Below, in pieces: positions 63,179 to 64,000 of a stretch of 64,000 bases of DNA. The DNA comes from Candidatus Magasanikbacteria bacterium GW2011_GWC2_37_14. GTDB taxonomy: Bacteria; Patescibacteriota; Patescibacteriia; Magasanikbacterales; UBA922. Position numbers and translations under genes: made by a program. The notes below the pieces were generated by a model, which did no database searches, had not been told where the DNA came from, and was given only the letters and a program-made list of their open reading frames with translations. The stretch is from positions 6,000 to 69,999 of the forward strand of contig LBSX01000002.1 in the NCBI GenBank assembly GCA_000990355.1. The letters run 5' to 3'. Numbering within the stretch: the first letter of the stretch is position 1; each line of letters starts with the position of its first letter.

Positions 63179-63207
63179 ATATTAGCAAATTTGACAAAAA
63201 AAATCAA
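63179..63207 (-). promoter_or_regulatory. candidate divergent promoter TTGATT-N17-TAATAT for the minus-strand operon
   Basis: Minus-strand TTGATT at 63207-63202 and TAATAT at 63184-63179. Confidence 0.4.
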
Positions 63208-63218
63208 GCTGGTATAAT
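63191..63218 (+). promoter_or_regulatory. clpB promoter TTGACA-N16-TATAAT
   Basis: TTGACA 63191-63196, TATAAT 63213-63218. Confidence 0.7.
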
Positions 63219-63219
63219 A

Positions 63220-63246
63220 TTAGCACTCAAAGGTAGTGAGTGATAA
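63220..63246 (+). promoter_or_regulatory. CIRCE operator (HrcA binding site)
   Basis: TTAGCACTC-N9-GAGTGATAA against the consensus TTAGCACTC-N9-GAGTGCTAA (one mismatch), directly after the -10. Confidence 0.8.
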
Positions 63247-63252
63247 CTCACT

Positions 63253-63345
63253 GTCATGCTGAACTTGTTTCAGCATCTATCCTTGTAAACACATTTCTAA
63301 AAAATTATAACTTTATGAAAGATCCTGAAATAAATTCAGGATGAC
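63253..63345. repeat. GTCAT...ATGAC double-hairpin element, 93-nt long form, in the clpB 5' UTR
   Basis: Stems identical to the 22246 and 34083 copies. Loops and central spacer differ. Confidence 0.85.
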
Positions 63346-63352
63346 AACCATT

Positions 63353-64000
63353 ATGAACCCACAAAATTTTACCCACAAATCACAAGAAGCATTGCAACGT
63401 GCTTCACAAATTGCTAGCGATAATGGTCACCCTCAAGTAGAACCACCTCATCTTTTTGCTGCATTACTGGAAGATGAAACTGGTGTGGTAGTTTCAATTT
63501 TTAAAAAATTAAATATAAATTTGGAAGAATTAAGAACCGAAATTAACAAGATGGTTAATTCTATTCCCAAACAATTTTCTGGTCCTCAGCCGGGGAATTT
63601 AGGGCAAATATTACTTGGACCAGGAATGGTGTATATTCTGCAAAATGCGCAAAACGAAGTACAAAAAATGGGTGATGAATACATTAGTGTAGAACATTTG
63701 CTCTTGGCTTTTTTAACCAATAAAAACCCAATTAGTGATGCTTTGTCACGCCAAGGAGTACAATATAATGAGATTTTAAAAACTTTAGCCAAAATCCGTG
63801 GCACGCAAAAAGTTGACTCCCCTGCCCCAGAACAAAAATATCAAGCCTTGGAAAAATATGGCAAAAATTTAACTGATTTGGCCCGCAAAGAAAAACTAGA
63901 TCCAGTAATTGGCCGAGATGATGAAGTGCGTCGGGTAATGCAGGTATTAACTCGTCGTACCAAAAATAATCCTGTCTTGATTGGTGAACCTGGGGTTGGT
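63353..64000 (+). CDS. clpB: chaperone ClpB, N-terminal part (continues past window end)
   Basis: My own translation: [17 protein letters not shown]...[51 protein letters not shown]. Not in the ORF track because no stop is reached. Confidence 0.93.

Follow-up and report, generated by a model that had tools for sequence, protein, structure and literature searches.

A predicted CIRCE-type operator at the clpB promoter and a palindromic repeat element in the clpB leader of a Magasanikbacteria genome

In Bacillus subtilis, the controlling inverted repeat of chaperone expression (CIRCE) is located at the groESL and the hrcA-grpE-dnaK-dnaJ operons. This bacterium is not known to have clpB, and its Clp genes are under the control of CtsR; almost no regulators have been studied experimentally in the Patescibacteria. 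In the Mollicutes Spiroplasma melliferum and Mycoplasma gallisepticum, the promoters of clpB, lon and the dnaK operon are HrcA-controlled, and a CIRCE that deviates at one or two positions still counts as functional in Mollicutes (PMC5138195). Here we describe the region in front of the clpB gene in a stretch of 64,000 nt from Candidatus Magasanikbacteria bacterium GW2011_GWC2_37_14, a tiny groundwater organism (contig LBSX01000002.1, positions 6,000 to 69,999; in the following: the window), where a promoter and a CIRCE-type inverted repeat are followed by a palindromic element of the form GTCAT...ATGAC that fills the leader.

Several kinds of short hairpin elements may be compared with this leader. 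Repetitive extragenic palindromic (REP) sequences, the bacterial interspersed mosaic elements (BIMEs) composed of them and the mini-elements derived from the IS200/IS605 insertion sequences are short conserved hairpin units that occur in opposite-orientation pairs and are not flanked by target-site duplications. RNA thermometers, such as ROSE, fourU and similar elements, are hairpins in the leaders of heat-shock genes. Correia repeat enclosed elements (CREE) duplicate their target, can carry promoters and a site for the integration host factor and are substrates of RNase III, and the Rickettsia palindromic elements (RPE), with a length of ~150 bp, are restricted to Rickettsia (PMC10969869).

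Neither component of the clpB locus is new in kind. A clpB gene under CIRCE/HrcA control has its counterpart in Mollicutes, and the small palindromic repeat in the leader is comparable to the Correia or REP-like elements. Taken as a whole, the locus is most probably explained by an HrcA/CIRCE-controlled clpB promoter plus a tolerated insertion of a repeat into its leader.

Promoter, predicted HrcA operator and regulon

The reading frame that starts at 63353 on the plus strand and runs off the window at 64000 represents the 5′ part of clpB. It has a Clp_N match and the ClpB equivalog model as its best NCBIfam match, and the TIGR03346 cut-off is exceeded by a full-length ortholog whose identity over the 215 aligned N-terminal residues is 80%. 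Its start, M-x-P, is conserved, with ATG-NNN-CCN at the same position in the orthologs, and the closest ClpB N-termini come from Magasanikbacteria and Patescibacteria.

This gene is preceded on the plus strand by the −35 hexamer TTGACA (63191-63196) and the extended −10 element TGgTATAAT (63210-63218, with the −10 hexamer TATAAT itself at 63213-63218); the 16-nt spacer between the two hexamers ends in TGG. In the promoter scan, 12 out of 12 consensus positions matched, plus the TG of the extended −10 element. Perfect TTGACA-N16-18-TATAAT combinations occur at seven sites in the window versus 0.11 expected, corresponding to a ~60-fold over-representation, which makes canonical promoters the norm in this organism.

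One nucleotide past the −10 hexamer begins the CIRCE-type inverted repeat (63220-63246, without assigned strand), which reads TTAGCACTC-AAAGGTAGT-GAGTGATAA and is predicted from the motif scan and its conservation to be an HrcA operator. It matches the classical CIRCE, TTAGCACTC-N9-GAGTGCTAA, at 17 out of 18 arm positions, with one mismatch and exact spacing, and it is the sole CIRCE-like site in the 64 kb at up to three mismatches, where 0.01 would be expected by chance. A preliminary description of this DNA had placed TTGACA-N16-TATAAT at 63191-63218 and a one-mismatch CIRCE at 63220-63246; on direct reading the promoter was confirmed in coordinates and letters, and the repeat is present as described. 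As is typical of an operator, it lies just downstream of the sigma-70-type promoter of a chaperone gene, and it covers the transcription start, which is predicted near 63225.

Conservation was assessed in a scan of one genome per species that yielded 80 clpB loci (ClpB identity 62-80%), most with 10-kb flanks and amounting to 1.22 Mb in total; one locus with only 13 nt upstream was left out, leaving 79 informative loci. Exactly one CIRCE-like site was found in each of them, always immediately 5′ of clpB, and none elsewhere in the 1.22 Mb. The −35 sequence TTGAC(A) is present in 79/79 loci as well. At 65 loci, the arrangement TTGACn-N15-19-TAnnnT was found with the second hexamer ending no more than 6 nt from CIRCE; of these, 55 have a 16-nt spacer, 53 have a gap of 1 nt between −10 and CIRCE, and 57 contain TGn. 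At the remaining 14 loci, the −10 overlaps CIRCE by 2 nt. The lineage consensus of the operator is TTATCACTC-N9-GAGTGATAA. Left arms read TTATCACTC at 56 loci and TTAGCACTC at 20, and right arms read GAGTGATAA at 56 and GAGTGCTAA at 18; therefore, the mismatch in the window, A for C, corresponds to what most members of the lineage have.

These data bear on the alternative of an inverted repeat at 63220-63246 that arose by chance or serves a regulator other than HrcA. Besides the one mismatch to the classical consensus, the sequences AGTGAG/CTCACT (63235-63252) could be cited in its favour, since they overlap the right arm and the RNA fold prefers their pairing. However, the mismatch is shared with most relatives, the CTCACT partner is unconserved among them, hardly any chance match was expected in the window, and the repeat occupies the identical position in all orthologous promoters, with conserved arms around a 9-nt spacer that varies freely.

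In most relatives (L003-L082), the clpB −35 is preceded at a distance of 10-25 nt by another −10-like box on the same strand, in many cases TGnTATAAT. Within the 30 nt examined, it is a perfect TATAAT in 29 relatives and a 5/6 match in 34. This box may be part of a tandem promoter; it is degenerate in the window (63170-63185), where TAATATTAGCA (63174-63184) repeats the −10/CIRCE junction TAATATTAGCA (63215-63225).

No signatures of hrcA, dnaK, groEL, groES, grpE or dnaJ were detected in the 64-kb window or in the 80 clpB loci with their 10-kb flanks. A metagenome scan with the lineage variant of the operator returned 120 loci, in which the genes behind CIRCE were groES (42), hrcA (22), dnaK (5), clpC (2), hsp20 (1) and several clpB. 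The preliminary description had regarded CIRCE control of clpB as plausible and had named the upstream regions of groES and dnaK as the place to look for further sites. At the level of the lineage this is borne out: CIRCE is found in front of both genes, and the 79 clpB loci share the promoter-operator unit with the hrcA operons.

Magasanikbacteria genomes code for HrcA-family proteins (PF01628; hrcA as the best NCBIfam model), and the closest homologues of the metagenome hrcA products include proteins from named Magasanikbacteria genomes. The lineage HrcA is short, with 224-239 aa or ~110 residues less than the 338-position NCBIfam model (22 loci, L083-L202; L159 7372-8070; L203 4001-4681), and aligns with the N-terminal 124 model positions and the C-terminal end. 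The operon order in relatives is hrcA-grpE-(small open reading frames)-dnaK-dnaJ, and a TTGAC-N17-TAtaaT-CIRCE unit ends 3-5 nt before the hrcA ATG. On the 495-kb contig VMGB01000001.1 (L203 and L080), both arrangements occur together, CIRCE-clpB and the operon hrcA-grpE-(158-aa open reading frame)-dnaK-dnaJ with CIRCE 5 nt 5′ of the ATG. The sequence of the window is also carried by a 71-kb contig of the Joint Genome Institute (JGI), Ga0209211_10000626, on which an identical GltX is encoded, and the RsmI of the window is the same as KKQ28079.1 from a metagenome-assembled genome of Candidatus Magasanikbacteria. Another contig of the same metagenome, L125 (Ga0209211_10000702), bears hrcA and was considered as belonging to the same organism, but was ruled out by its G+C content of 48.5% versus 32.7% in the window and a tetranucleotide correlation of 0.63.

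That hrcA is not seen in this contig would also suit a repeat unrelated to HrcA. Set against this, the same motif precedes hrcA, groES and dnaK in the lineage, and together with its position and conservation at clpB this makes it barely conceivable that the repeat is not an HrcA operator. From the comparison of loci, HrcA control of clpB is well supported.

In analogy to characterised HrcA/CIRCE systems, an HrcA dimer bound to CIRCE would block initiation at clpB under normal conditions, the operator being placed one base past a strong sigma-70-type extended −10 promoter and over the predicted transcription start. Under heat or protein-folding stress, active HrcA would be lost and clpB released, which would make the gene heat-inducible. 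The same promoter-operator unit would also drive hrcA-grpE-dnaK-dnaJ in the lineage.

This system resembles that of Mollicutes in the small genome and in the presence of CIRCE at the clpB promoter and at the dnaK operon. It differs in the phylum, Patescibacteria, and in its majority arms, TTATCACTC/GAGTGATAA instead of TTAGCACTC/GAGTGCTAA; compared with Mollicutes it also has one CIRCE copy per promoter and an HrcA that falls ~110 residues below the 338-position model, and it is predicted from sequence. With Bacillus subtilis it shares the 9-N9-9 repeat directly past a sigma-A-type −10 and over the transcription start, as predicted here, and the position of hrcA as the first gene of the dnaK operon with its own operator in front, whereas the inclusion of clpB in the CIRCE set sets it apart. 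A full-text literature search for HrcA with Patescibacteria or the candidate phyla radiation gave nothing relevant among the 15 top-ranked of 851 matches. The locus provides a comparative-genomics case of transcriptional regulation in Patescibacteria, in which the HrcA/CIRCE circuit appears intact, the promoters are of canonical sigma-70 type and clpB is included as in Mollicutes. For the few members that can be cultivated, this unit of promoter and operator might be used as a stress-inducible expression cassette.

Structure and copies of the palindromic element

The remaining leader is occupied by the palindromic element on the plus strand, which extends from GTCAT at 63253 to ATGAC at 63345 and ends 7 nt before the clpB ATG, precisely as in the preliminary description. 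Its inverted termini, TGTCAT...ATGACA, are one base longer (63252-63346; 93-95 nt), as delimited by the repeat families D1, D6, D10 and I1 and a six-copy alignment, and the element starts six bases after CIRCE. It consists of a left hairpin (63256-63276, stem 63256-63263/63269-63276), an AT-rich variable core (63277-63321) and a right hairpin (63322-63342, stem 63322-63329/63335-63342), each hairpin with a stem of 8 bp and a 5-nt loop.

Exactly three copies are present in the 64-kb window, with six termini versus 0.57 expected. According to the repeat search and alignment, a second full-length copy fills the spacer between atpA and atpG (34082-34176, plus strand). A short copy, composed of the two hairpins and a minimal core, was found by repeat search and translation in frame within rsmI, where it encodes CHAEFISASQGILKPVQDD (22245-22302, plus strand). 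Full two-hairpin copies exist in other Magasanikbacteria-like loci (L071, L072 and L185), and those of L071 and L072 are reversed relative to the transcription of the flanking genes. A variant copy with a different second hairpin was found in L014, and single hairpins in L120 and L159.

The six-copy consensus is TGTCATGCTGAAyTTrTTTCAGCATC, followed by a variable core of 13-50 nt and by GATCCTGAAAnnAGTTCAGGATGACA. The two ends, of 26 nt, together make up an inverted repeat, and each end is also a hairpin of its own. Between the left and the right hairpin there is a compensatory G-C/C-G swap that is fixed in all six copies; therefore, the local hairpins are perfect, and one G.G and one C.C mismatch remain where the ends pair with each other. 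In the covariation analysis of the hairpins, the stems were invariant across all six copies. No direct repeat indicative of a target-site duplication flanks any of the six aligned copies. [quoted passage not shown] A full-text search for the terminal sequences of the element and the encoded peptides yielded nothing relevant.

Like the Neisseria Correia element at mtrCDE, the clpB-leader copy is a small non-coding repeat with terminal inverted repeats that is placed between a promoter and the first gene, within the leader, and in which a long duplex is possible; unlike Correia elements, it shows no visible target duplication. With REP/BIME sequences and IS200/IS605 mini-elements it has in common the paired hairpins, the occurrence in transcribed operon spacers (atpA-atpG) and the lack of target duplication, but in contrast to REP/BIME the element is also found in coding sequence and its hairpin unit is common to Spirochaetota and Alphaproteobacteria replicons. 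The rsmI copy, though not the clpB-leader copy, parallels RPE as a palindromic repeat in frame in a conserved enzyme; yet the element, at 57-95 nt, is unrelated to RPE in sequence.

The left hairpin, TGTCATGCTGAACTTGTTTCAGCAT, is 100% identical in the replicons just mentioned. On pTS1 of Treponema saccharophilum (L212, 401-470), its partner is another right hairpin, with GGAATGACA at the end, and on pTomTYG65a of Sphingobium (L213, 401-432) it stands as a single perfect palindrome. Given its identity in other phyla, the hairpin module crosses phyla. Downstream of hrcA-grpE in L159 (8600-8890), different GTCAT-type units are piled up in a nested cluster of hairpin repeats, comprising GTCATTGCGAGGTACGAAGCAATCTC twice, a CCCCCTC...GAGGGGG unit, GATGCTGAAATAAATTCAGCATGAC and GTCATCCTGAAC...GGATCTC.

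The element in the clpB leader

In the 79 orthologous leaders, the distance between CIRCE and the ATG has a median of 35 nt (range 7-203 nt) and is ≤30 nt in 39 of them. The GTCAT...ATGAC element was found in none of these leaders. In L003 and L004, the two closest relatives, the leader is an unrelated one of 43 and 136 nt, respectively, and removal of 63252-63346 from the leader in the window leaves an 11-nt spacer, well inside the usual range. Judged by this comparison, the element is an insertion and not an ancestral design. Inserts seem to land, or to be tolerated, repeatedly between operator and ATG. The clpB leader of L054 contains a GTCATTGCGAGG...CTCGCAATGAC element.

Both full-length copies have an ATG within the terminal ATGACA (34171 and 63341), located 12 nt upstream of and in frame with the conserved ATG of atpG or clpB, and a mechanical caller of open reading frames extends atpG to the ATG at 34171. 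As an alternative clpB start, the ATG at 63341 was rejected because M-x-P is the beginning of the orthologs and because the L072 copy and the gene downstream of it are in different frames. The in-frame ATG in both copies is probably a coincidence.

An element of this kind could import a transcription signal of its own into the clpB leader, be it a promoter within the element or a terminator/attenuator. Promoters can be part of MITEs such as Correia (PMC10969869), and the core holds TTGTAA (63283-63288) and TATAAC (63306-63311) at a distance of 17 nt. However, this −10-like sequence lacks the invariant final T and went unreported by the promoter scan, and the core differs between copies; the candidate TTGTAA-N17-TATAAC was rejected as weak and unconserved. 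U runs are lacking after both hairpins, the scan gave no terminator for the plus strand, and the atpA-atpG copy sits within an operon. An own signal of the element thus appears extremely unlikely.

The preliminary description had further raised the idea that two stable hairpins in the leader of a heat-shock gene were co-opted for RNA stability or thermosensing. A role of this kind, in which an RNA thermometer or dedicated stability module adjusts clpB translation to temperature, would agree with an element filling the leader up to 7 nt from the AUG, with the recurrence of structured inserts in the clpB leader of other lineages and with a leader folding energy of −37.3 kcal/mol, far better than that of shuffled sequence (z = −5.6). 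In addition, the right stem pairs AGGA with UCCU, which would elsewhere resemble a masked ribosome-binding site. The AGGA was nevertheless rejected as such a site, because Shine-Dalgarno-like motifs occur upstream of only 0-2 of the 58 predicted genes in the window, where the upstream regions are A/T-rich instead; the clpB orthologs likewise have no Shine-Dalgarno sequences.

Temperature-dependent folding in silico gave energies for the element of −27.7 kcal/mol (37 °C), −12.8 kcal/mol (60 °C) and −6.8 kcal/mol (70 °C), and each hairpin alone still had −2.3 to −2.4 kcal/mol at 70 °C. The structure is predicted to persist above 70 °C and covers no translation signal, the AUG and the preceding 7 nt lying outside the element without sequestration of the start codon. 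Accessibility was calculated for temperatures of 4-75 °C as the mean probability of being unpaired at positions −12 to +13 around the AUG, with an assumed transcript start at 63225. It amounted to 0.54 (20 °C), 0.63 (37 °C) and 0.66 (45 °C) with the element and to 0.51, 0.57 and 0.59, respectively, in a construct without it, and the AUG region was about equally accessible with or without the element at every temperature tested. At both gathering and permissive thresholds, Rfam returned only weak matches resembling plant and animal miRNA precursors, i.e. generic long hairpins, and no thermometer family.

The locus thus shares with ROSE and fourU elements a hairpin in a heat-shock leader, but the ribosome-binding region and AUG are unmasked, no melting is predicted in the physiological range and conservation among orthologs is lacking. 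Moreover, the same element occurs in coding sequence, between atpA and atpG, and in reversed orientation elsewhere. The thermosensor idea did not survive these comparisons, which gave the result for the leader hairpins that the preliminary description had named as refuting it, and we consider an RNA thermometer or dedicated stability module very unlikely. For hairpin-rich leaders in these genomes, it is advisable to check the orthologs before calling riboregulators, as repeats land in leaders, in operon spacers and, in frame, in enzymes.

In the explanation preferred here, a 95-nt two-hairpin element would have inserted into a spacer of ~11-13 nt between the operator and the start codon, leaving promoter, operator and ATG intact. 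It would be transcribed as a very stable stem-loop, with the AUG and the 7 nt before it remaining unpaired, and translation would start without Shine-Dalgarno pairing, so that the element would most likely be tolerated and be neutral or mildly modulating.

Several findings weigh against this explanation. The genes hrcA, groES and dnaK are absent from both the window and the 71-kb contig Ga0209211_10000626, and therefore the repressor has been seen for the lineage and not for this genome. The short lineage HrcA, 226-232 aa in the proteins scored, stays below the NCBIfam hrcA cut-off, with 163-174 versus 197 bits, and its binding to the operator is a prediction. As to the leader, 22 of the 79 relatives have leaders >60 nt, at least 13 of which hold unrelated strongly structured palindromes (z ≤ −3.5), and structured clpB leaders could be favoured rather than merely tolerated. 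By analogy with Correia elements, a long duplex in the leader can be a target of RNase III, which might change the mRNA level.

The latter points lead to a role at the RNA level that is independent of temperature, in which the duplex or the hairpins alter the half-life of the clpB mRNA through RNase III processing or 5′-end protection and the inserts are selected. The structured inserts of at least 13/79 leaders, apparently acquired independently, speak for it, as do the predicted extended duplex that joins the two 26-nt ends and the precedent of Correia elements just downstream of the mtrCDE promoter, which are cut by RNase III (PMC10969869). However, leaders of ≤30 nt suffice in half of the relatives, these compact genomes have little intergenic space, so that tolerated sites accumulate inserts, and all six copies keep the G.G and C.C mismatch in the long-range pairing whereas the local hairpins are perfect. 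We regard such a role as quite improbable. A wider scenario, which is speculative and in our view improbable, would make the operator-ATG spacer a recurrent landing site for unrelated palindromes across Magasanikbacteria and the GTCAT...ATGAC elements an unnamed cross-phylum family that inserts without target duplication into transcribed DNA, in enzyme genes even in frame, with the structured leader being selected to protect or process an mRNA devoid of a Shine-Dalgarno sequence.

Neighbouring genes and palindromes within genes

On the minus strand, a DUF5654 gene encoding 85 aa from the ATG at 63156 (62899-63156; Pfam PF18898; gene call in the JGI contig) is divergently adjacent to clpB. A divergent promoter on the minus strand is possible in the shared spacer, where TTGTCA-N16-TATATT (63170-63197; 10/12 consensus match) has its −35 (63197-63192) overlapping that of clpB. 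DUF5654 divergently adjoins clpB in just 2 of the 79 relatives (L003 and L021), and there the divergent promoter is poorly kept and its −10 not well preserved.

Many of the closest ClpB matches are fragments of 190-370 aa at contig ends, and the JGI contig with the sequence of the window likewise stops 181 codons into clpB. Metagenome assemblies may be recurrently broken at this gene.

At the position of the element copy in rsmI (open reading frame 21930-22649), alignments to solved RsmI structures have a gap of 13 residues. No insert is present in RsmI orthologs of 219-225 aa, among them that encoded on the closest relative's contig. In-frame insertions recur in the RsmI loop that separates DPGNxLI from IPIPG; there, other RsmI orthologs contain different GTCAT...ATGAC-type inserts, encoding e.g. 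VILSEARRAKSKYP...LRSAQDD, VIASSARAERSNP... and CHPEFISGS...ILKQVQHD. There were no orthologs of rsmI, atpA or atpG among the fetched clpB loci.

A different palindromic stretch lies within the WecG/TagA reading frame on the minus strand (62016-62888). In frame and ~130 nt long (~62545-62680), it has a G+C content of 62% in a genome of 33% and is made of small palindromes, GCCTGCC...GGCAGGC, GGAGTTGCCG...CGGCAAACTC and CCTCCTC...GAGGAGG. The encoded protein comprises 290 aa versus 246 aa in the relative L123.

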